64,000 nucleotides of DNA from a virus. Below, piece after piece: positions 7,995 through 63,537 of this stretch; position 1 is the first letter of the stretch, and the number at the start of each line of letters is the position of its first letter. The DNA is taken from IMG/VR virus record IMGVR_UViG_3300005537_000002, positions 64,001 to 128,000 of that record; one strand, 5' to 3'. The notes beneath the pieces were generated by a model. It saw nothing but the letters and a program-made list of their open reading frames with translations. It was not told the origin of the DNA and ran no database searches. The translations under genes were made by a program, and so were the position numbers.

Positions 7995-8893
7995 CAAACA
8001 AAGAAAAAGGGTTCACTATGGCGGTGTGTATAAATTGTGGAAAAGGACTTTCTCTATGGAACAGACTTGTGAGACAGACCATATGCAGTGAATGTGGTGA
8101 ATACTTTCAGAACGAACGTTATAGGTGGCTGTCTGCGATCGAGAGGGACTTTTCTAGAGGAGGTGTATCCTTAGAGTTGGAGACCCAAATGTATCAACAC
8201 TTCCAAAGTATACATATGCCTGAGTATGAAGGCATCCCTGTCATAGAAAAGATGAGATACTTTAGAGAACTTTCGGAAGTGCAGTGGGGTAATGTACCAA
8301 CCATTCGTATAGATAGGCATCTAGACTCAGATGAGTACGCCTACTTCTCGTTCGAGACTACGTACTATAATAAACAGCTAAGACCCGTCGAGGGTATATT
8401 GGTAGGTACTAACAAGAAGTGCTACTTCCACCCCATATCTGGCGTAGGTGGAGTACATATCAATTGGGGTAATATAAGCCAAGTGAAGGAGGAGTCCGTA
8501 CGAGTATACACCCATCCCAGACCTCTACGAGGTGTTACAGAACAGTTGGTAGTCAAGAGGGTTTTAAGAATCTCCGTATCTGCCAGTTCCGGTGGAGGGG
8601 ATTACTACGTAAGAGACCCGTTTAAGGCTTGTATCTACATCGACACTCTTGTACGTATTTGGAAGAGACAACTAATCATTCGTAGAGAGTTAGGCACATA
8701 CGGAGACGTACCTAATCACGTAAAGTCTGATGTGTATAAACGAGATAAGGGATGCTGTCAACAATGCGGCTACAGTGGGGACTACATCGAGTATGACCAC
8801 ATCATACCTCGGAGTAAGGGAGGGTCGAATACGGTAGATAATATACAACTTCTTTGTAGGAGATGTAATTTGCAAAAGGGAGATAGGCTGTAA
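7991..8893 (+). CDS. HNH endonuclease with an extended N-terminal region
   Basis: RDKGCCQQC...EYDHIIPRSKGGSNTVDNIQLLCRRCN; N-terminal CxxC pairs. Confidence 0.85.
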   Translation: MTNKEKGFTMAVCINCGKGLSLWNRLVRQTICSECGEYFQNERYRWLSAIERDFSRGGVSLELETQMYQHFQSIHMPEYEGIPVIEKMRYFRELSEVQWGNVPTIRIDRHLDSDEYAYFSFETTYYNKQLRPVEGILVGTNKKCYFHPISGVGGVHINWGNISQVKEESVRVYTHPRPLRGVTEQLVVKRVLRISVSASSGGGDYYVRDPFKACIYIDTLVRIWKRQLIIRRELGTYGDVPNHVKSDVYKRDKGCCQQCGYSGDYIEYDHIIPRSKGGSNTVDNIQLLCRRCNLQKGDRL

Positions 8894-8919
8894 CAACCAA
8901 AAAAAAGGAGGCATACGGA

Positions 8920-10167
8920 TTGAGTCCGTATACAGCAACCGTCAAGAAGAGACGGTCACGCAAACTATATACTAAGTACGATGCTATAGTACGGTGGGTA
9001 GTCGTGGCATGTGCTAGCATGTTGTTGAATGCAGCATTATTAGATGTCGCATTATGGATATACCCCTTACAGAGTCTGAGTCAGCTAGTAGTGTGGAATA
9101 CGCTGGTGTCAGCTATCGCTTCGATATGCGGCATGGTAGGGTATCGATTGTGGGTATTGGGGAGATACCGTATGCTAACAGCAGAGGAGTTCGGTAAATG
9201 TCTATCTATACTCACTTTCGAGTCTTTGGTGGACACGATGTTAGCTGTACTAAGCCAGTTCGCTAGTATTATGCTAGTGGGAGACTTATTACCCACTACT
9301 ACTATGAAACTAATTGCGGTTATAGGGACGTTCATCCTGTCCACTGTGCTACTTAAACAATGGATGGGTAAGAAGCCTGTATATGAGTGCATCATGAAAC
9401 CTTCTCGAGCGTCTATACGTAGACAACACTACACGTTGTCAGTCGTAATGGTAGCACAGGACAATGCGGATTATATTCAGCATACTGTACATCAAATGTA
9501 CGAGTCCCTAACGTACATGGTCGATGACTTCGAAGTCATCGTAGTCAACGACGGTAGTGCCGATCATACAGGTGTGCTGTTAGAGGCTATATCTATCATG
9601 ACCCCGCGAGTTAGGGTAGTGAATTACGCCAAACCTCGAGGATACTCTACAGCTTTAGCGACCGGACTCAAACTAGCGTGTAAGGAACTGACATTCATTA
9701 CCTCTTCAGACGACCAGTTCGACATACAGGATCTAGCGTTCTTCCTTCCGTATATGTGTGAGTACGACGCGGTTTTCGGTTACCCCTTCGGCGAGACTGG
9801 CAGTCGTTTCGAGAGATTCTGTACGTGGAGTTGGAGTACGTTAGTCAGTCGGACGTTCGGACTTAACGTAAGAGACGTCGACTGCGAATTCAAACTATTT
9901 AGAACTGACTTCTTTACGGACTATGAACTGACTGTCACTGACTCTCGCTTAGTGTATGTAGACATGTTGTATCAGTTAGCACAGTCGGATAGGTCGTATA
10001 CCGAAATGGGCGTACTACAAACACCAACTGTACTAGAACGTAAGAGAGACACAAGCCTGCTGAGCTTGGTTAAGAACGCGTCTGCACTACGAAAGTATGT
10101 TAAGGAACGGAAAATCAGTAGTTACGGGCACCACCTACACTCGAACGCTGCGATACGTACCTCTTGA
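8920..10167 (+). CDS. GtrA-like membrane domain fused to a GT2 (polyprenol-phosphate glycosyltransferase-like) domain
   Basis: Four N-terminal TM helices; LSVVMVA, FEVIVVNDGSADHT, GYSTALATG, RDVDCEFKLFR. The DxD site reads SSDDQFD. Confidence 0.75.
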   Translation: MSPYTATVKKRRSRKLYTKYDAIVRWVVVACASMLLNAALLDVALWIYPLQSLSQLVVWNTLVSAIASICGMVGYRLWVLGRYRMLTAEEFGKCLSILTFESLVDTMLAVLSQFASIMLVGDLLPTTTMKLIAVIGTFILSTVLLKQWMGKKPVYECIMKPSRASIRRQHYTLSVVMVAQDNADYIQHTVHQMYESLTYMVDDFEVIVVNDGSADHTGVLLEAISIMTPRVRVVNYAKPRGYSTALATGLKLACKELTFITSSDDQFDIQDLAFFLPYMCEYDAVFGYPFGETGSRFERFCTWSWSTLVSRTFGLNVRDVDCEFKLFRTDFFTDYELTVTDSRLVYVDMLYQLAQSDRSYTEMGVLQTPTVLERKRDTSLLSLVKNASALRKYVKERKISSYGHHLHSNAAIRTS

Positions 10168-14127: not shown

Positions 14128-14289
14128 ATGACTGTTACTGCAGACACTTCACAAAGGCACTCGCTGCTTATGCTGGCGAAGTGCTCCACTTGCGGACTCT
14201 GCGACCAAAACGACTTCAAACCCGTACATGGGTACGGCAACCCCAACGCAAGGGTCATTTCTAGATATAGAGGTGATCATGTTCTCTAA
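14128..14289 (+). pseudogene. Orphaned original 5' end of the DNA polymerase gene (53 aa)
   Basis: Not in the ORF track. With a GAAAGGTG RBS it translates to MTVTADTSQRHSLLMLAKCSTCGLCDQNDFKPVHGYGNPNARVI|SRY..., nearly identical to the polymerase N-terminus SLLALCKCSTCGLCNQNDFKPVMGYGNSGARVIF. Confidence 0.85.
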
Positions 14290-14988
14290 ACCTTGTACGA
14301 AGTGTAGCGCTCCCGAAAGGCAGAAGGGCCAGTCTCTATGCGTAACCTGTCAACGTGAGTACGAGAGGCTGTGGCGAGAGAAAAATAGAGAGAAGATTAA
14401 CCACCAATACAAACAGTGGCGTGCGAATATGACAGAAGGTCAGCGCGAACGTGAAAGAGAATCCGGTAGAAGAGGAGAAGCAAAAGTTCGACAGAAGTTA
14501 CTCGAATACAGACTAGAACACCCGTGCATCGATTGTGGAGAGACTAATCCTATATGTCTACACTTCGATCATGTAACCGGTGAAAAACGTATGGATATCA
14601 CCCACTTACGAACGTACGGGTGGCCAAGCGTAGAAAAGGAACTTCAAAAATGTGTAGTGCGATGTGGGAACTGTCACGTCAAAAGACACTTCCTAACTAA
14701 AGGTACTACAAAGTACGGACCTAGTAAACATCTCTCGAAAGCAGCGAACGCTAGGAGAGATGTGTTTAGGCGCTATCTCCAACTGTGGGGGTGTATAGAC
14801 TGCGGTTTACAAGATGTAGACTGTTTGGAGTTCGATCACGTCTTCGGAGAGAAGTTAGCAGACGTAAGTATACTAATCGACAACGATACCAAAACTGGGA
14901 GGCTACAGTCGACGAAATCGCTAAGTGCGAAGTAGTCTGCGTAAACTGCCACGCTAAACGTACTGAGAGTAGGGGGTATCAATGGTAG
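14279..14988 (+). pseudogene. Tandem double-HNH endonuclease with a frameshift near 14885-14895
   Basis: Two CIDCG...FDHV.GEK modules. The second module's KCEVVCVNCHAKRT is in the -1 frame and ends at 14988, overlapping the pol ATG. Confidence 0.75.
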
Positions 14989-17900
14989 TAGAAACTTCAT
15001 GGGTGGGTTCAGCAGACAGAAGTCTGCTAGCACTATGCAAGTGCTCAACTTGTGGTCTATGCAATCAGAATGACTTCAAACCAGTAATGGGTTACGGAAA
15101 TAGTGGAGCTAGAGTTATATTCGTAGGGGAAGCAGCCGGCCGTAATGAACATATCCAGGGTATCCCGTTTGTAGGAGAGTCCGGTAGGCTCTTGACAGCT
15201 GTGCTCCAAAGGGTACAGCTGTCAGATGGAAGTTACCTGCAAAGAGATGACGTCTACCTTACGAACGCTTGTCTGTGTCGACCAGAAGACAATCGTACAC
15301 CGTCAGCTGCAGAAATCGTGGCTTGCAACGAGCGTTTGAAGGCGGAGATCAAATCTCTTCCTAACCGACACTTGATTGTAGTGTTGGGTAGTAGTGCGAT
15401 CAAGGCTGTAACTGGCAAGCACCAGAGTATGAACGCCATGCACGGTAAGATTGAGTGGAGTGCTGAGTTTCAGTGCTTCATTACGTATACGTGGCACCCA
15501 GCGTACATATTGAGGACTCCGAATGACTTTCCTGACCTTGACTACGTCATGAGTCAGATACCGAGCATTCTGGATACGCCTAAAGGGCCTATCCAATTTC
15601 AGCCGCCGAAGTATATCGTAGAAGACTCCATCGATATGGCGATTAAGCGATTGCTACACTTGCTTGATCACGTCGAAGGTGATGTCGCTTGTGACATCGA
15701 AACGACCAACTTGGAGTTAGCACAGCCAACTAACTTCATTCTCGAGATCGGCTTCTCTTGGGAGGATGGAAAGGCGTACATCTTACCTCACCACATCTTC
15801 AACGACAGTCAAGTGAAGGTAGTACTGATACGCTTCCTGGAAAAGAAGAGTGTGCGGTTTGTATACCACAACGGGATGTTCGACATTGCGTGGTTGCGCT
15901 ACAAGTTGGGAGCTAAACAGGCTTGGATTGGTGCGGACACGATGTTGATGTCTTCACTCTATGATCCAAGAGGTAGAGGCGGTGGAGAAGGAGATGAAGT
16001 GCAGGGGGTTGGAACGACACACGGCCTAAAGCCATTAAGCCGCAAACACTGTCAAGCACCAGCTTGGGAAGATGACATTCATGCGTACCTTCCGAATAAA
16101 GAAGCGAGCTTCGAACTCATACCGGCAGATGTCCGACAGAGGTATATGAGCTTCGACTTGGTGTACACGTTACGGCTCTTTAGGAGACTAACAGAGCTGT
16201 TAGAAAAGGAAGATCCCTCCGCTGAAGGTTACCCAACTCCACTTGAGTGCCACTACAATCTGCTCATACCCGCGGCTAACATGCTAGCGGACATTGAGTC
16301 TCACGGTATCCTCATCGACCGTAAGTACGTGGAGGAACTGAGAGACAAGATGGAAGAGCAGATGCGGGTCTCTAACGAGAAGATCCGAGAGGCCACTAAA
16401 GAATTCTTCAGACGAGACGGTCAAGAGATTACGTTACGTAAGTCGAGAGACGAAGAAGTAACCGAGCGTAAACGTAAGCTCGTAGGTACAGAAGTCCGGT
16501 GGAAAGCACGTAAGCGATATGACAAGTCAGCTAAGGCTTGGGTGCCGGACACTCCTGTACCGGACGGAGTGAGACAGCTGTACGAATACGAGTACATAAC
16601 TAGGGTAGTTAAGAGGTACTATGACGTTGTGCTTAGGGGTGAAGAAGCCGTTGAACACCTAGCGAACGAGTTCAACGTACGCTCTGCTTTACACTTACGA
16701 CACATTCTCTACGACCACTTAGGCTTACCGCCAGTTGAAGGTAAAGAAGTCACTGACAAAGATCAACTAGAACGATACAAGCATGCTCACCTCATTATTC
16801 CACTCATAATGGAATACAAGAACGTGAACCGGCTATATGGCATCTTCATCAAAGGGATGCTAGCTAGATTAGATCCGTATGACCGGTGTCACCCACGATT
16901 TAACATTCATGCAACTCGTACAGGACGATTGTCGAGTTCTAATCCTAATAGTCAGAACATCCCAAGGGATGGACTCATCAAACGTATGTTTACCGTTCCA
17001 AAGGGATACGTTTTTGTCGAAAGTGACTATAGCGGACTTGAGTTCACTGTCATTGCGTGGTACTGTAACGCTCACGTCAATCCAGCATTCCACGATCCGA
17101 CTTTAGCACAGGACGTAGCTGGCGATATCCACCAAGCCTTTGCTGAAGAAGCGTTCGCAGAGCTACTAGCGAAGATCCGAGCGAACAAACGTAGTCTATC
17201 GGCGCTCGAACAGATCATGCGTGAAGAAGTTATCATGACGGAGAAGCGCATCGAGCAGGAGCGAGATAAGCGAACCGATCCGGAGGAAGTAGCTTCACTA
17301 ATGCTGAAGCACGCACGCTTTATGGCAAAATTCTGTACCTTCGGCATTTTGTACGGACGTTCGGCTCACTCGCTAGCGTTTGATGATGATGGTATGCACG
17401 TCTCTCTCGAACAGGCTGAGGAGTACTTACGTAAGTTCTTCGCTAAGTATAATGGCTTGTACAGATTCTTGCAACAACAAACAAAGTACGCACTCGAACG
17501 TGGTTGGCAAGAGATGCCTAGCGGTAGACGAGCGAAGTATCCGTTCATCACTAGAGACAATCGGTCCCAAATTGAACGTCAGAGTTGGAACTCGCCTATT
17601 CAGGGAGGTGCAAGTGACATTTGCTTAGGGGCCTGTATAGACCTACAGAAAGAGCTAGTTGCTAGAGGTTGGGGTTACGTGCTCTTCATTGTACACGACG
17701 CTATCATGATGCAACTAAAAGAGGAGCATATGCATGAAGGTATTGCTCTTATGAAGTCGATCATGGAAGGAGTCACACAGAAACTAAAGTCGCCAGTTGA
17801 CTTTAGGGTTGAGACTAAAGTCGGTAAGAATTGGGGTGACGCAGTCGACATAGAAGTGGAGCACGAACTAGTACACCACCATACTAAAACTGCACACCAC

Positions 17901-18032
17901 GAGATTTCCAGTGACTGTTTCCAGTACGTGTTGTACACGTACACTGACAGCGAAACAGGCTTACCCAAAACGAAACGAGTCCCGCTATGTTCAGTACCGG
18001 TTGAAGACAGACAGGCAACTGTGCTAGCGTAA
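14982..18032 (+). CDS. polA: Family A DNA polymerase with N-terminal family-4 uracil-DNA glycosylase domain and 3'-5' exonuclease
   Basis: UDG: GEAAG, YLTNACLCRP, HPAYILR, four Fe-S Cys. Exonuclease: DIET, HNGMFD, YMSFD. Polymerase motifs A (SDYSGLE), B (RFMAKFCTFGILYG) and C (VHDA). Confidence 0.95.
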   Translation: MVVETSWVGSADRSLLALCKCSTCGLCNQNDFKPVMGYGNSGARVIFVGEAAGRNEHIQGIPFVGESGRLLTAVLQRVQLSDGSYLQRDDVYLTNACLCRPEDNRTPSAAEIVACNERLKAEIKSLPNRHLIVVLGSSAIKAVTGKHQSMNAMHGKIEWSAEFQCFITYTWHPAYILRTPNDFPDLDYVMSQIPSILDTPKGPIQFQPPKYIVEDSIDMAIKRLLHLLDHVEGDVACDIETTNLELAQPTNFILEIGFSWEDGKAYILPHHIFNDSQVKVVLIRFLEKKSVRFVYHNGMFDIAWLRYKLGAKQAWIGADTMLMSSLYDPRGRGGGEGDEVQGVGTTHGLKPLSRKHCQAPAWEDDIHAYLPNKEASFELIPADVRQRYMSFDLVYTLRLFRRLTELLEKEDPSAEGYPTPLECHYNLLIPAANMLADIESHGILIDRKYVEELRDKMEEQMRVSNEKIREATKEFFRRDGQEITLRKSRDEEVTERKRKLVGTEVRWKARKRYDKSAKAWVPDTPVPDGVRQLYEYEYITRVVKRYYDVVLRGEEAVEHLANEFNVRSALHLRHILYDHLGLPPVEGKEVTDKDQLERYKHAHLIIPLIMEYKNVNRLYGIFIKGMLARLDPYDRCHPRFNIHATRTGRLSSSNPNSQNIPRDGLIKRMFTVPKGYVFVESDYSGLEFTVIAWYCNAHVNPAFHDPTLAQDVAGDIHQAFAEEAFAELLAKIRANKRSLSALEQIMREEVIMTEKRIEQERDKRTDPEEVASLMLKHARFMAKFCTFGILYGRSAHSLAFDDDGMHVSLEQAEEYLRKFFAKYNGLYRFLQQQTKYALERGWQEMPSGRRAKYPFITRDNRSQIERQSWNSPIQGGASDICLGACIDLQKELVARGWGYVLFIVHDAIMMQLKEEHMHEGIALMKSIMEGVTQKLKSPVDFRVETKVGKNWGDAVDIEVEHELVHHHTKTAHHEISSDCFQYVLYTYTDSETGLPKTKRVPLCSVPVEDRQATVLA

Positions 18033-22241: not shown

Positions 22242-22526
22242 ATGGCGGCAGTTACGTCTGCGGCGATACTTTCTGTGGCGCTATTAGTAATACTATCCGG
22301 TAGGTACAGAAAACGTAGAAGCAGGTGGAAAAGCAACCATCTCATCTTCAGTATCGGATGTGGATCGTTCTTTCTAGTGCTATTGTTAGCACTAGTTGCT
22401 AGTGCATTCACTGTACTGTACAGTGCAGAGCATGCGTTCTTTGTAGACGCAGTTGCAACTTGGATCGTTGCATTCTGCTGTGCTTGTATATGCCTCGGAA
22501 GTCTTTTTGCGTACTTCCGAGGCTAG
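22242..22526 (+). CDS. Small multi-TM membrane protein
   Basis: Three hydrophobic segments. Confidence 0.5.
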   Translation: MAAVTSAAILSVALLVILSGRYRKRRSRWKSNHLIFSIGCGSFFLVLLLALVASAFTVLYSAEHAFFVDAVATWIVAFCCACICLGSLFAYFRG

Positions 22527-22544
22527 CTACTTATATGGAGTCTT

Positions 22545-23108
22545 ATGTCAGCAGATACACCTATTGTAGATCAGCCTACGTCAGAGTTACCAGTAGTGCG
22601 ACCAACTCATACTTGGAGGGTAGTAGCAGATCCGAAGGGGGATCGGAAGCTACTGTCAGTTGGAACGAGCGTACTTGAAGCTATTCAAAGCTTCGCTCGT
22701 GGAGTACAGGATAACCAGCCGATTGGCATCTATTTAGATGATGTACCCGTCGCCGGAGTACACATCCAAGCAAACCAACCGCCGCTATGCTTACATATCC
22801 TAACGGATATGTCAGCGGCAGATATTGATTGGCACAGCGGACCTACTTCTGTTTGCACGATCGACGAGACGACGGTTATCGACTTGTTGAAAGTCGCATG
22901 TAACGGAGGTAGGATAACGTCCAAACTTCGATTGCCCCTCCCAGTTGTCAGTCGCACCTCAGATGTAAGTTCACTCACACTCGTGAAACTACTACTCTCC
23001 GCACTGTCCAACGAGACACAACCCCATGTGCTAACTGAGCAATGCCAAGCAATCGTCGTACAAGTTGACAAGACGTCGTGTAAATATCTACACGTCAAAC
23101 GTAGTTAA
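22545..23108 (+). CDS. Hypothetical protein
   Basis: GGAG RBS; directly upstream of the RAMP-like gene. Confidence 0.55.
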   Translation: MSADTPIVDQPTSELPVVRPTHTWRVVADPKGDRKLLSVGTSVLEAIQSFARGVQDNQPIGIYLDDVPVAGVHIQANQPPLCLHILTDMSAADIDWHSGPTSVCTIDETTVIDLLKVACNGGRITSKLRLPLPVVSRTSDVSSLTLVKLLLSALSNETQPHVLTEQCQAIVVQVDKTSCKYLHVKRS

Positions 23109-23129
23109 GTAGAAGGGAATACCACGAAT

Positions 23130-23693
23130 ATGGCTGCAGTTATCATCGTCTCCATTACGGGGATGACCCCACTTATTATGAACCGCTTCCACGAGGAAGC
23201 ACAGGCAGAAGCTACCTCCCGCGTACACTCACGTAAGGAAACGCTCTCTCCGGAAGACGACGCCAAAGGTAGACTCTACCAAAACGAAGAACTCGGAGTC
23301 TACATGCCGGCCGAGTGGGTCCGTCAGTCTGTTATTGAAGCAGCTAAGAGACACAAAATTGGTAGACGGGCCGCTACTACAGACATTGCTGCCGCTGTGT
23401 ACATCGAACCGTTCGCTATGAAGCTCGAAGGTGAGTGGCACGTAGACACTCGTCCAGTCGTTATACCTGCCACTCAAGGACGTATTCTCAGACACAGGCC
23501 GATGTTCGAAACCTGGTCCGTGAAGGGTTTTCGATTGCAAGTCGAAACTGACCTCGTCGACGAAAAGCTAGTACGAGCTGTGCTAGACGACAGCGGTAGA
23601 TTCGTAGGGGTAGGAGACTTCAGACCCACTAAGAAAGGCCCCTACGGCAGATTCCGTGTAGACAGTTGGGAACGTTTAAGCAACCACTCATAA
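23130..23693 (+). CDS. Minimal RAMP/Cas7-like protein (Vipr-like)
   Basis: beta1 ITGMTPLIM, YMPAEWVRQSV (Cas7-like y.P...+G/Q..), C-terminal Gly-rich loop GRFVGVGDFRPTKKGPYGRFRV; no other cas genes in the window. Confidence 0.8.
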   Translation: MAAVIIVSITGMTPLIMNRFHEEAQAEATSRVHSRKETLSPEDDAKGRLYQNEELGVYMPAEWVRQSVIEAAKRHKIGRRAATTDIAAAVYIEPFAMKLEGEWHVDTRPVVIPATQGRILRHRPMFETWSVKGFRLQVETDLVDEKLVRAVLDDSGRFVGVGDFRPTKKGPYGRFRVDSWERLSNHS

Positions 23694-23694
23694 A

Positions 23695-24886
23695 GGTTTG
23701 GTTTGTCAAGTTAGGCTATGGTGGGTCACGGCAAGGTAAGGACGCTTCGGCTCGGATTGGTGAGCTATAGTAAGTCACGGTAGGGTGTTGTAGGGTAAGG
23801 ATGGCGTGGTTTGGACTAGTGCGACTTGGAGCCGTGGGGTAAGTCACGTTCCGGTATCGCGCGGTGTGGATGCCCAGGTACGGATCGGTTTGCTAGTGCG
23901 AGGTTGACACTGGTAGAGTTTGGTTTGTCTAGCTGGCGTCAGGTGAGGAAGCTATGGTGAGGTCGAGCATGGCAGAGTTTGCTCGGGTACTGCTAGGCGG
24001 GTTAAGGTACGGTCCGGAAGCTTTGGTCAGGTTAGGTATGCTCGAGTTTGTTACGGTGTGTTAAGGTTCTGTTTGGCTTGCTACGTTATGTATAGGTTGG
24101 CTATGCTGAGATATGGTAAGGACGCTTTGGTTTGGACTGGTCGGGACAGTTAAGGGGTGGTCCGGTATAGCTTGCTACGGATTGGTTTCGTTCGGCTCGG
24201 TTAGGAAGCTTCGGTACGGTGAGTTGAGGCTAGGATTGCAATGGTCGGGTATGTTTTTATAGGGTTCGGTTAGATCAGTAGTGGTAAGGCGCCGTAGGGA
24301 CAGGTCTGAGAGGCGAGGTTGCATGCGGCTAGGAGTGGTGTCGTATGGTACGGATGCTAAGGAGAGGTTAGGACTGCAATGGTCTGTCGCGGTAATGACA
24401 GGCGTGTCGATGTGTGGTATGTTCAGGTGAGGATGCTTCGGTATGGATCGGCGCTGTTTGGAAAGGTTTGCTAGGGTAAGTCGAGGCTCACAGAGGTATG
24501 GTAGGTCGTGGTACAGAACGGTTCGGAAGCCTAGGTATGGTACGTAATGGCATGCTTTGGTAGTCTTTTGTCTGGCACGCTAAGTCGAGGTGGAGTTCGG
24601 TAAGCTGCGGAGAGGAAGCTAAGGTCTGGAACGTCGAGGTATGGTATGGGAAGCCATTGTACGGTGAGTCGGTGTGAGCGAAGGTTTGTTAGGCTGGGGT
24701 ATGGAAGTCCAGGAAAGGTGAGGTGCAGTTTGGCAGTGCGTGGTGAGGTAGGGCTGTGTCCCGGTAACGTGAGGTAAGGTACTGCAACGCGCGGTGAGGT
24801 TCGGATGCTAAGAACAGGCGTGGTACGGTATAGTGGGGAAATGCTAGGTAAGGCATGTCAAGTTGCGCTTGCGTAAGGTACGGTTT
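23695..24886 (+). repeat. Non-coding GGY-NN pentamer array (predicted guide-RNA precursor): 213 pentamers, 15 segments, 14 nine-nt delimiters
   Basis: Parsed by hand: 213x5 + 14x9 + one extra base = 1192 nt. Begins 1 nt after the RAMP stop codon; no + strand ORF. Confidence 0.9.
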
Positions 24887-25167
24887 TACAGCGCGTGATA
24901 GTATGCGGAACCGTTGTCGAAGCATACTATCACGCGTTCGTAGTGGTTTCGGTACGCTCTATCATAGTTTGGGGTTCCGATGAGATGTAGAGCCATCTCA
25001 ATTGTAGAGTCTGACGTGTATAGCACAGTGCCATCATTAGAGGCCTTTGCTAGGTAATAGCGTACTAGGCTACCCCTTCGGACTAGCACAGTTGCATTGT
25101 AGGTCGGTTCGTTTGTCCGAGCTCTCAACAGAGAAAACGGACGTTCATTGGCTTTCCCCTCTGACAT
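24886..25167 (-). CDS. Hypothetical protein, the only plausible minus-strand gene
   Basis: AAGGAG RBS on the minus strand; convergent on the array; divergent from the AT-rich promoter at 25204. Confidence 0.45.
   Translation of the reverse strand: MSEGKANERPFSLLRARTNEPTYNATVLVRRGSLVRYYLAKASNDGTVLYTSDSTIEMALHLIGTPNYDRAYRNHYERVIVCFDNGSAYYHAL
24892..24936. terminator. 15-bp perfect hairpin closing the array
   Basis: CGCGTGATAGTATGC-15 nt-GCATACTATCACGCG. Confidence 0.65.
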
Positions 25168-25203
25168 GGATACCTGTTCTCCTTCGTAGTAAACACAGCC
25201 CTC

Positions 25204-25233
25204 TTGAATTTAGTTTATGTAATTTATTATAAT
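25204..25233 (+). promoter_or_regulatory. Sigma70-like phage promoter
   Basis: CCTC-TTGAAT-18-TATAAT. Confidence 0.7.
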
Positions 25234-25294
25234 ATAAATAGAAGAGTAAAAACAAGGATCGCTGTATCTTTGGTACGAGCAACGGAGGACGCAA

Positions 25295-25777
25295 TTGAGC
25301 TATGACAACAATGTAGCGGAATACCCTCGCCCTAAGAGCAGGAGGGCGCAACGGGTTATGGAGGAGCGTATCGCAGCATTAGACTGCGATATCGTAAGTC
25401 GGACAGAGGATACGATAAGCGTCTCCTATCCCGACGACCTCACTAAATTTCAACTGGATCAAGTACTAATGCACGCGTATGAGTACCAACTGTTCACGTT
25501 GTGGGATGCCTTAGATGTAGGCATCGGAGCATCAACGTGTGGAGCGACGTCGAAAGGTTTGACCCTCATAGGTGTCACTCGAGTAAGGGGGAGAGCGTAC
25601 TGTTTACGTATCTCCTACAGCGTCTTAAGGTCAACTGAACAGGGAGTAGTCTGCATTTGGAAAGCAAATGAGAGCAACCAACTGGAACTAGCTATGAGAG
25701 CGATGTTCGGCCTAGAACTTTCTGATGCAGTCTGGTTTCCCTACTGGGAAGAGAGTTCCAACGGAGGAGGACAATGA
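25295..25777 (+). CDS. Hypothetical protein
   Basis: GGAGG RBS. Confidence 0.55.
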   Translation: MSYDNNVAEYPRPKSRRAQRVMEERIAALDCDIVSRTEDTISVSYPDDLTKFQLDQVLMHAYEYQLFTLWDALDVGIGASTCGATSKGLTLIGVTRVRGRAYCLRISYSVLRSTEQGVVCIWKANESNQLELAMRAMFGLELSDAVWFPYWEESSNGGGQ

Positions 25778-26040
25778 GAAAAGGTCAGGCTAAAATGCGC
25801 GAGCTGCAGGAGCACGTACATGCAAGTACAGACAACTTATGTCACTTTTGTAATACAAGGCCTGCTATAGGTGACTATACATACAAGCCGGGTAAAACGT
25901 CTATTATCGGTCGTCTGTGTACAGACTGCGTGCTAGAGTTGAATGGCAAACCGACAACTGCGACTGCTAAAGAGGGGCCTTGTATGATATTGTTTGTTAA
26001 CAAACTATTCCAGGAGGGTAGCAGTAATGTCACAGACTGA
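25774..26040 (+). CDS. Small zinc-finger protein
   Basis: CxxC...CxxC. Confidence 0.5.
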   Translation: MRKGQAKMRELQEHVHASTDNLCHFCNTRPAIGDYTYKPGKTSIIGRLCTDCVLELNGKPTTATAKEGPCMILFVNKLFQEGSSNVTD

Positions 26041-53866: not shown

Positions 53867-54271
53867 ATGACACTGGAAGAACTGAACGAACGGTTACCGG
53901 AAGAGTTGAGAAGCCGTACGTTAGAGGGAATCAACGAACGCATCATCAACCATCCAGCGTTGGGGGTTACATATTGTATCTCGCAAGGGCAATTGGACCG
54001 TACAATTGCGGGAGATGAGTGGTCAGAGTACGCGAGTAACTTAGTCTTAGCCGACATTCAGCAGGAGGTTGTGGCAGCTCGAATGCGTCTGTTCTTAGGA
54101 GACATCTTCTCGAAGATGGTTGAGTTCGGTGCCGAACTTATCGAACTGGAAGCTGATAGATGGCGTCGGCTACTAGACTACAACGGAGACTGGACGAGTT
54201 CTCTCAACTATGATAACGATTGGTTTGCTGTGAGACTTAGTAAAGAGCTTGAAAAGAAGGGGTTACTATGA
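53867..54271 (+). CDS. Hypothetical protein
   Basis: GGAGGT RBS. Confidence 0.55.
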   Translation: MTLEELNERLPEELRSRTLEGINERIINHPALGVTYCISQGQLDRTIAGDEWSEYASNLVLADIQQEVVAARMRLFLGDIFSKMVEFGAELIELEADRWRRLLDYNGDWTSSLNYDNDWFAVRLSKELEKKGLL

Positions 54272-54600
54272 GTGACAATCCGTATGAGTTGCGTAGTTTT
54301 GATCGAGAAGCACTGATAAAGGCAGTGCAACCCGAACATCCGGATGAGTTTAGCGCGTATTACTACTTGATGGAGCAGGCAGGCTTGTTCCGATGGCTGG
54401 CATTCGAGACAGATGAAATGTCTACCGCAGCTCAGGAGCAGGTCGCGGAGACATTTGAGAGCGTTGCCGCAGCAAAAATCTGCTGCTTTGACTTTGACTC
54501 TGTGTCAACAGACTGCAACCTGCTACTAGTTTATACTGACACCCAGTTACATAGCGTACTAACGCACGCGTGTCAGTACTACGAAGAGGAGGTCGAGTAG
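54268..54600 (+). CDS. Hypothetical acidic protein
   Basis: ATGA overlap. Confidence 0.55.
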   Translation: MSDNPYELRSFDREALIKAVQPEHPDEFSAYYYLMEQAGLFRWLAFETDEMSTAAQEQVAETFESVAAAKICCFDFDSVSTDCNLLLVYTDTQLHSVLTHACQYYEEEVE

Positions 54601-63078: not shown

Positions 63079-63537
63079 ATGCGTACAGACAGCGGAGAAG
63101 AGTTAGTCGAGTTGGATATAGCTACACTAGAGCGTCATATCCAACAGTCGAAAGAATATAGACTTTGGTACAGTATATGGGAACTGACTGAGTGGCTCTT
63201 TAGCGAAGACGCAAACCATGTGTGGGTGAGGTACTCTAGAACTGCCGGTAGGTATAGCGTCCAAGTGAAGACAGTAGATGGAGTAGAGATACTCGCCCTA
63301 GATAGTCGTGTGAGAGAACTGATGGCTAAGGAAGAGAATGTGCGACTCTTCCCTACCGTAGACAACATCTACGAGTATGCACAGTTGTGCATAGAGATGT
63401 CGTACACGGACATCATCAAGGAGAAGGCTTGCGGAATCTCTCTCCCGAACGGATTCTGGAGGGATAAGCCCCCAATCGTAGAGTATGCCGTATACGGCTG
63501 GCGTATACCACAACTAGAAGAGGACCAAGAAGTATGA
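63079..63537 (+). CDS. Hypothetical protein
   Basis: AAAGGAGG RBS. Confidence 0.6.
   Translation: MRTDSGEELVELDIATLERHIQQSKEYRLWYSIWELTEWLFSEDANHVWVRYSRTAGRYSVQVKTVDGVEILALDSRVRELMAKEENVRLFPTVDNIYEYAQLCIEMSYTDIIKEKACGISLPNGFWRDKPPIVEYAVYGWRIPQLEEDQEV

Follow-up and report, generated by a model that had tools for sequence, protein, structure and literature searches.

The vipr gene and the adjacent pentamer tract

The DNA considered here, referred to as the window, is a stretch of 64,000 nucleotides that corresponds to bases 64001-128000 of the 177,637-bp genome of an uncultured soil phage. It carries a gene for a small stand-alone protein, vipr, that is followed on the same strand by a tract of GGY/NN pentamers divisible into guides, and by a hairpin at the end of the tract (Table 1). 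The tract sits within a block of replication genes. An HNH endonuclease gene directly precedes the gene for a 1016-aa DNA polymerase at 14228-18032 of the window (both PHROG matches).

Table 1. Coordinates of vipr, the array with its guides and the terminal hairpin (window positions).
Feature	Position	Strand	Remarks
vipr gene	23130..23693	+	187 aa; predicted stand-alone Cas7-like RAMP (profile match to SUSP1 Vipr, AF2/Foldseek)
Staggered vrRNA array	23695..24886	+	15 guides, ~228 pentamers counting junction units; begins 2 nt after the vipr stop codon
Guide 1	23695..23744	+	10 pentamers including terminal GGACG
Guide 2	23744..23803	+	12 pentamers; opens with the G shared at the junction
Guide 3	23803..23872	+	14 pentamers
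Guide 4	23872..23951	+	16 pentamers
Guide 5	23951..24020	+	14 pentamers
Guide 6	24020..24124	+	21 pentamers
Guide 7	24124..24208	+	17 pentamers
Guide 8	24208..24312	+	21 pentamers; degenerate end junction GAGAG instead of GGAWG; border ambiguous, two parses disagree
Guide 9	24312..24356	+	9 pentamers
Guide 10	24356..24435	+	16 pentamers
Guide 11	24435..24529	+	19 pentamers
Guide 12	24529..24618	+	18 pentamers
Guide 13	24618..24707	+	18 pentamers
Guide 14	24707..24807	+	10 + 11 pentamers; 1-nt insertion near 24752-24762, exact slip position ambiguous
Guide 15	24807..24886	+	16 pentamers; last guide of the array
Hairpin after array	24886..24943	+	-30.6 kcal/mol, z = -4.33; none of 200 shuffles is as stable

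The tract at 23695-24886 is defined by the regular spacing of its G residues, which lies far above chance: for lags from 5 to 30 the autocorrelation values are +0.36, +0.32, +0.31, +0.33, +0.27 and +0.25. The 24 segments of 200 nt with the strongest period-5 G power in the 64 kb all begin between 23601 and 24801, and a scan of period-5 G power across the whole phage genome found no other tract to match it. A dynamic-programming parse resolves the tract into 15 segments with 213 pentamers in total. G occupies position 1 in 82% of these units and position 2 in 72%, position 3 has T (65%) or C (20%) for a combined 85%, and positions 4 and 5 are variable; strict GGT or GGC units account for 101 of the 213 (47%). 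Outside the window, a weaker period-5 G signal is present upstream at 54001-54350 of the genome (power 1.3-1.9; most of the array has 2.4-6.6, and the median for the window is 0.13), and this signal might be a solo guide or might have arisen by chance.

There is no plus-strand ORF of 50 aa or more in 23695-24886, the longest being 49 aa, and stop codons are found throughout all three plus frames, which speaks against a pentapeptide-repeat ORF. An Rfam scan of 22500-26000 returned no family at E ≤ 1, including ribozymes, and none of 50,697 phage records was matched by 23130-25300 in blastn. Tandem Repeats Finder reported no array in 23695-24886 because the array units are too degenerate. Of 200 shuffles of a 292-nt array piece, 195 fold better than the piece itself, as expected for a single-stranded RNA that is held by protein.

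The guides carry 8 to 20 specificity dinucleotides each and are divided by nine-nt separators, which read GGA-N-G... in 13 of 14 cases and GGANGC in 11 of 14. The separators can be re-read as two pentamers that have one G in common, a terminal GGAWG and a leading G-C/G/T-Y-N-N, such that the last G of GGAWG is the first G of the G-N-Y-N-N unit that opens the next guide. The third base of the leading unit is T or C in all 13 junctions of regular form, and each junction shifts the register by one base. The guides therefore abut via a 1-nt overlap and are without individual 3′ tails. No hammerhead ribozymes were found between the guides (Rfam at E ≤ 1, 22500-26000), where the junctions are just 9 nt long. 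Counting the slip in guide 14 as a border changes the guide count to 16 runs. The hairpin behind the last guide is possibly a 3′ cap or terminator of the array; a terminator scan at this position found none, and no T-run follows the hairpin.

Much of this organization bears on an initial annotation of the DNA, which had parsed the tract into period-5 units and extracted 15 dinucleotide strings, S1 to S15. The independent dynamic-programming parse gave the same total of 213 pentamers, and a by-eye comparison found 12 of the 15 strings (S1-S7, S10-S13 and S15) to be identical. The parse also bears out that all 15 strings are mutually different. The strings S8 and S9 agree except for where one degenerate border is placed, and S14 agrees but for the placing of its 1-nt slip. 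The separators that had been taken as guide borders are better read as two pentamers with a shared G, which means that strings S2-S15 were probably written without their first dinucleotide.

Homology of the window protein to Vipr

VIPR (Viral Interference Programmable Repeat) is a CRISPR-related DNA silencer that was described in 2026 (10.64898/2026.04.26.720920). The Vipr protein is a small phage-borne RAMP that binds vrRNAs composed of GGY/NN pentamers, with one protomer per pentamer and the GGY bases buried in the protein (10.64898/2026.04.26.720920, 10.64898/2026.04.26.720927). Under the 1-nt skip rule, which has been demonstrated for SUSP1, the NN pairs read the target while every third base is skipped, the skipped base being the codon wobble; binding silences the transcription of rival phages or satellites (10.64898/2026.04.26.720920).

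A profile of 26 homologues of the window protein, when compared with the PDB, matched one solved structure, 36pp_D 'SUSP1 Vipr protein', at E 3.4e-13. The match of the single sequence to 36pp SUSP1 Vipr, at E 4.5e-9, is significant yet distant. The protein corresponds to phrog_4652, a family of unknown function. The top Foldseek matches of its AF2 model (pLDDT 85.8) are type VII Cas7 chains 8z4j_F and 8yhe_E (E ~1e-6) and Csm3 chains, and the window Vipr thus models as a Cas7-like RAMP fold.

In SUSP1 Vipr, the residues H17, R138, D177, W178 and R179 contact GGY, and the substitutions D177A and R138A abolish silencing (10.64898/2026.04.26.720927). The alignment pairs the SUSP1 motif GDWRP (D177, W178, R179) with GDFRP of the window protein, and SYRPIF (R138) with RHRPMF, so that R138, D177, W178 and R179 correspond to R123, D163, F164 and R165. 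R123, D163 and R165 are invariant and F164 is nearly invariant across the 26 homologues. The N-terminal contact residue H17 of SUSP1 falls outside the alignment; H21 of the window protein is invariant in the 26 homologues.

With regard to the neighbours of vipr, the gene at 22545-23108 also encodes a protein of 187 aa and was considered as a second RAMP, but this candidate was rejected at an hhalign probability of 0.2%. No cas families, including adaptation genes, were found among the neighbours by Pfam and PADLOC. An accessory vap gene next to vipr is typical of VIPR loci but not universal (10.64898/2026.04.26.720920), and none was recognised near vipr by Pfam and PADLOC on the neighbours or by ORF families across 88 loci. 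A lineage-specific vap gene at the window locus is possible.

Conserved linkage of vipr and array in related loci

A search for related loci with the single protein sequence found none, whereas a search with an alignment recovered relatives. More than 150 homologues of the window Vipr were found at 53-71% identity. Period-5 G arrays lie directly beside the vipr homologue, on one or both sides, in all three IMG/VR relatives, and are found beside vipr in most of 84 further loci (80 metagenome, 4 genome). The vipr gene is the sole ORF family common to all 88 loci, and no ORF family that flanks it in the window recurs in the other 87. In the 87 related loci and this genome, 4-nt steps are by far the commonest register break (265 of 381), and the junction consensus of the family arrays is GG-Y-W-G followed directly by G-N-Y-N-N.

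Three pairs of loci (L072/L073, L061/L062 and L031/L032) encode Vipr proteins that are 100% identical and have no guides in common, which is the hypervariability expected of guides. In L072/L073 the guide ends are conserved and the NN pairs differ. The arrays of this pair (L072 2841-3277, L073 1998-2485) come from a distant clade with ~39% Vipr identity to the window protein, in which a conserved AT-rich tail ends each guide instead of the 1-nt overlap. Long arrays of 1.2 to 2.4 kb occur in several relatives (L010 10600-13060, L020/L021 ~8040-9710, L074 4470-5730), and that of L010 (~2.4 kb) parses into ~30 guides, so that an array of 15 guides, as in the window, is nothing unusual for the family.

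Other genes accompany vipr in parts of the family. In 11 of the 88 loci, a DUF559/MTES_1575 restriction-endonuclease-like gene (for example L001 3244-3669, plus strand, Pfam E 1.7e-13) lies just 5′ of the upstream vrRNA array; the window has no such gene, which may be an accessory gene specific to a lineage or a homing element. Genes for an ERF-family annealase and a PDDEXK-like nuclease lie just upstream of vipr in 14-15 distant-clade loci (e.g. L039 1210-2090, plus strand), an adjacency that places VIPR beside a recombination module in that clade.

Dinucleotide vocabulary and target searches

The 228 NN pairs of the array were compared with models of codon positions 1-2, 2-3 and 3-1 and their complements, built from the phage's own long ORFs, and with plain genome dinucleotides. 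The sense model of codon positions 1-2 gave the best fit, with an advantage of 20.8 bits over the genome dinucleotide model when this phage's codon usage, which may not be that of the target, is used as the codon proxy. The same model wins 1914 of 2000 bootstraps, the optimum of a sense/antisense mixture is 0.8 sense, and the 6,419 NN pairs of the family give the same ranking of models. AA, TT and AT together make up 36% of the NN pairs, compared with 20% in phage codon positions 1-2.

Targets in the phage's own genome were sought with all guides at skips 0-3, using 20 order-shuffled controls per guide, and none were found except for the trivial skip-3 match of the array to itself. For 13 of the 15 guides, the best self match at a 1-nt skip does not exceed the top score among 20 shuffles. 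The string S2 matches 17 of 20 bases at 63331-63359 of the phage genome at skip 1 (shuffle maximum 16), in an ORF where the skipped base is at codon position 1 and not 3, and this match is read as chance; S12 reaches 23 of 32 against a shuffle maximum of 22. The published VIPR work uses an NN match of at least 80% as its target criterion (10.64898/2026.04.26.720920). When 235 unique guides of the 88 loci were run against related loci totalling 861 kb and this genome, with arrays masked, they did no better than shuffles at any skip; the 80% level is reached at skip 1 by 6 real and 7 shuffled guides.

IMG/VR was searched with exact 1-nt-skip seeds, each 8 or 9 NN pairs in a row, followed by scoring of the NN bases in the flanks. 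The seeds covered 6 of the 15 guides (S6, S8 and S10-S13). The S8 seed (9 NN) had 0 matches, and the S6 seed (8 NN) had 22, with flanks of 3-10 of 24. The remaining seeds gave 16 matches for S10 (flanks 3-6 of 14), 4 for S11 (4-6 of 20), 13 for S12 (4-7 of 18) and 28 for S13, the best flank of which, 10 of 18 in three near-identical contigs, has a binomial tail of 0.005 per match and is not significant over the number of matches. By these low-sensitivity exact seeds, no IMG/VR targets were found for the 6 of 15 guides, all flanks being within the range of chance. The best partial match of any guide is by S13, with 26 of 34 NN bases (76%, below the 80% threshold) at about bases 280-330 of L132/L137/L153; it includes an unbroken run of 10 dinucleotides, in frame and with the skips on wobble, in an ORF of a GC-rich viral contig.

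De-duplication left 70 IMG/VR seed matches, all judged to be chance by their flanks. Open frames of 100 codons or more contain 63 of them, and the skip falls on codon position 3 in 43 of the 63 (31 sense and 12 antisense; p = 2e-8 versus one third), a tally that is not independent of the NN composition result. With such a bias among matches that arise by chance, a codon-phase tally is meaningless unless shuffled guides serve as controls.

The initial annotation had suggested that the NN pairs are the guide letters and that the wobble base of the target is skipped. This rule equals the one already in print for VIPR (10.64898/2026.04.26.720920), the locus is homologous, and the vocabulary fits codon positions 1-2 best, but the searches run here gave no target match. 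We infer that the 1-nt skip rule would extend to the window array by homology with SUSP1, a transfer that is supported by the NN composition. The gapped-match test that had been put forward was run in a much weaker form than proposed (exact seeds of 6 of 15 guides in IMG/VR, and searches with shuffled controls in the phage's own genome and the 861 kb of relatives) and yielded no significant match; the suggested tally of codon frames has the anticipated bias to position 3, but on matches that are all chance by their flanks. The description of the guides as acquired is not upheld, as there are no adaptation genes at the locus and the available text of the VIPR report describes none (10.64898/2026.04.26.720920).

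Interpretation of the locus

The homology of Vipr, the GGY/NN array and the shared-G layout together imply a VIPR system with a staggered array, and the window locus is a divergent member of an already published kind. It is very probable that this 177-kb soil phage carries a VIPR system consisting of vipr and a staggered array of ~15 guides that would act by SUSP1-like silencing. Extrapolating from SUSP1, the array would be transcribed with or behind vipr, and one Vipr protomer would bind each pentamer, sequestering G1, G2 and Y3 and presenting N4-N5. The presented dinucleotides would base-pair to one strand of DNA while each third base of the target is flipped out, and the bound filament would silence the transcription of a competing mobile element.

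A far more speculative extension, and one that we consider rather unlikely to hold in full, is that the guide border is a processing or assembly signal and that the guides silence protein-coding genes of an AT-richer competitor not yet in IMG/VR. The border combines a one-base register slip with the purine third base of GGA, present in 13 of 14 junctions, which would be unfit for the pyrimidine-only Y3 pocket of SUSP1 Vipr, and a Vipr filament would therefore stop there. Such a stop would separate the guides without the need for a tail, pseudoknot or ribozyme. The NN vocabulary, which is codon-like, mostly sense and AT-rich, would point to the coding genes of an AT-richer competitor.

Other roles can be envisaged for the array. 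It might be a decoy or sponge that soaks up or redirects the Vipr of a competing phage, like the solo vrRNAs of E. coli satellites. Diversion of phage VIPR to decoy sites by satellite vrRNAs has been described, as have phage-borne orphan vrRNAs (10.64898/2026.10.15.759431), and such a role would agree with target searches that gave no match in the phage's own genome, in the 861 kb, or in IMG/VR with seeds of 6 of 15 guides. However, the array begins 2 nt behind an intact vipr with conserved published contact residues, and is therefore not an orphan array, and the linkage of gene and array is kept across 88 loci, making a decoy very improbable. Alternatively, the guides could exert temporal control over transcription of the phage's own genes by self-targeting, a role that would suit an array within the replication gene block and to which the 17 of 20 match of S2 to the phage genome might be attributed. 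Yet 13 of the 15 guides do no better than shuffles and S12 is just above them (23/32 versus 22), the S2 site is one base above shuffles and has its skip at codon position 1, and the published sets hold no self-targets at 80% or more in the available text of that work (10.64898/2026.04.26.720920); self-targeting is thus an even poorer prospect than a decoy.

It could also be argued that the tract is not a guide array, but a pentapeptide-like coding repeat, a simple-sequence tract, or an array of sites for some other RNA- or DNA-binding protein. TRAP-binding leaders also carry period-5 triplet arrays, and GGA motifs are present in the junctions. Nevertheless, stops fill the plus frames, where no ORF exceeds 49 aa, a Vipr homologue accompanies the tract in 88 loci, and the unit of the tract equals the published GGY/NN vrRNA unit (10.64898/2026.04.26.720920), so that we attach next to no credence to a tract without guides. 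A TRAP- or CsrA-like titration RNA, G-quadruplex repeats, a primase-site array and an R-loop origin had been dropped as candidates before the PDB match.

VIPR is a recent discovery of RNA-guided DNA recognition by a gapped code that has been proposed to pre-date CRISPR. Read as a VIPR system, the window locus adds an example from a large soil phage. Its staggered array is long and has no tails, an accessory gene is not recognisable, and the array could serve for testing how staggered guides separate.

Comparison with known systems

The features by which VIPR loci are recognised include at least four tandem GGY/NN (YNNGG) units in an intergenic position beside vipr, a small stand-alone RAMP with an RRM core, G-loop and thumb that is homologous to a characterised Vipr, and hypervariable NN pairs beside a conserved protein and fixed bases. 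The window locus has 213 such pentamers and a protein that matches PDB 36pp_D, and the family displays the hypervariability. In type II VIPR (the SUSP1/P. fulva clade) each vrRNA has 9-16 repeats and a conserved structured 3′ tail, and that tail is missing from the window array. The closest layout is that of the staggered VIPR arrays (10.64898/2026.04.26.720920, PMC13142463), which are likewise found with a stand-alone vipr RAMP gene in phages and consist of back-to-back GGY/NN pentamer guides with a 1-nt overlap from end to start. This match is drawn from the Results text and the legend of fig. S18, and the available text does not name staggered arrays among the layouts confirmed by small-RNA sequencing (10.64898/2026.04.26.720920).

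The type II VIPR of Escherichia phage SUSP1 (Vipr, Vap1 and four vrRNAs; PDB 36pp) has a homologous Vipr, with the D-aromatic-R of the G-loop and the R-P of the thumb conserved in both proteins despite a distant sequence match. Both systems are phage-borne, and in both the GGY/NN pentamer guides flank vipr. The window array has 15 guides with 8-20 units, whereas SUSP1 has four with 9-16, and each SUSP1 guide ends in a conserved 3′ tail/pseudoknot of ~40 nt, in contrast to the one hairpin after the last guide of the window. SUSP1 possesses Vap1 and the window is without a recognised vap gene; the targets of SUSP1 are known and belong to a satellite, while none were found for the window guides in the searches run.

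The Cas7 backbone of class 1 CRISPR systems (type III Csm3, type VII Cas7) resembles the window Vipr in its predicted RAMP fold. No CRISPR repeat-spacer array was found in 23695-24886 by Tandem Repeats Finder. Cas7 and Vipr both place one protomer on each short RNA step, and in both a thumb breaks the guide-target duplex periodically (10.64898/2026.04.26.720927). They differ in the size and use of that step, which is 6 nt with 5 pairing bases in Cas7 and 5 nt with 2 pairing bases in VIPR.
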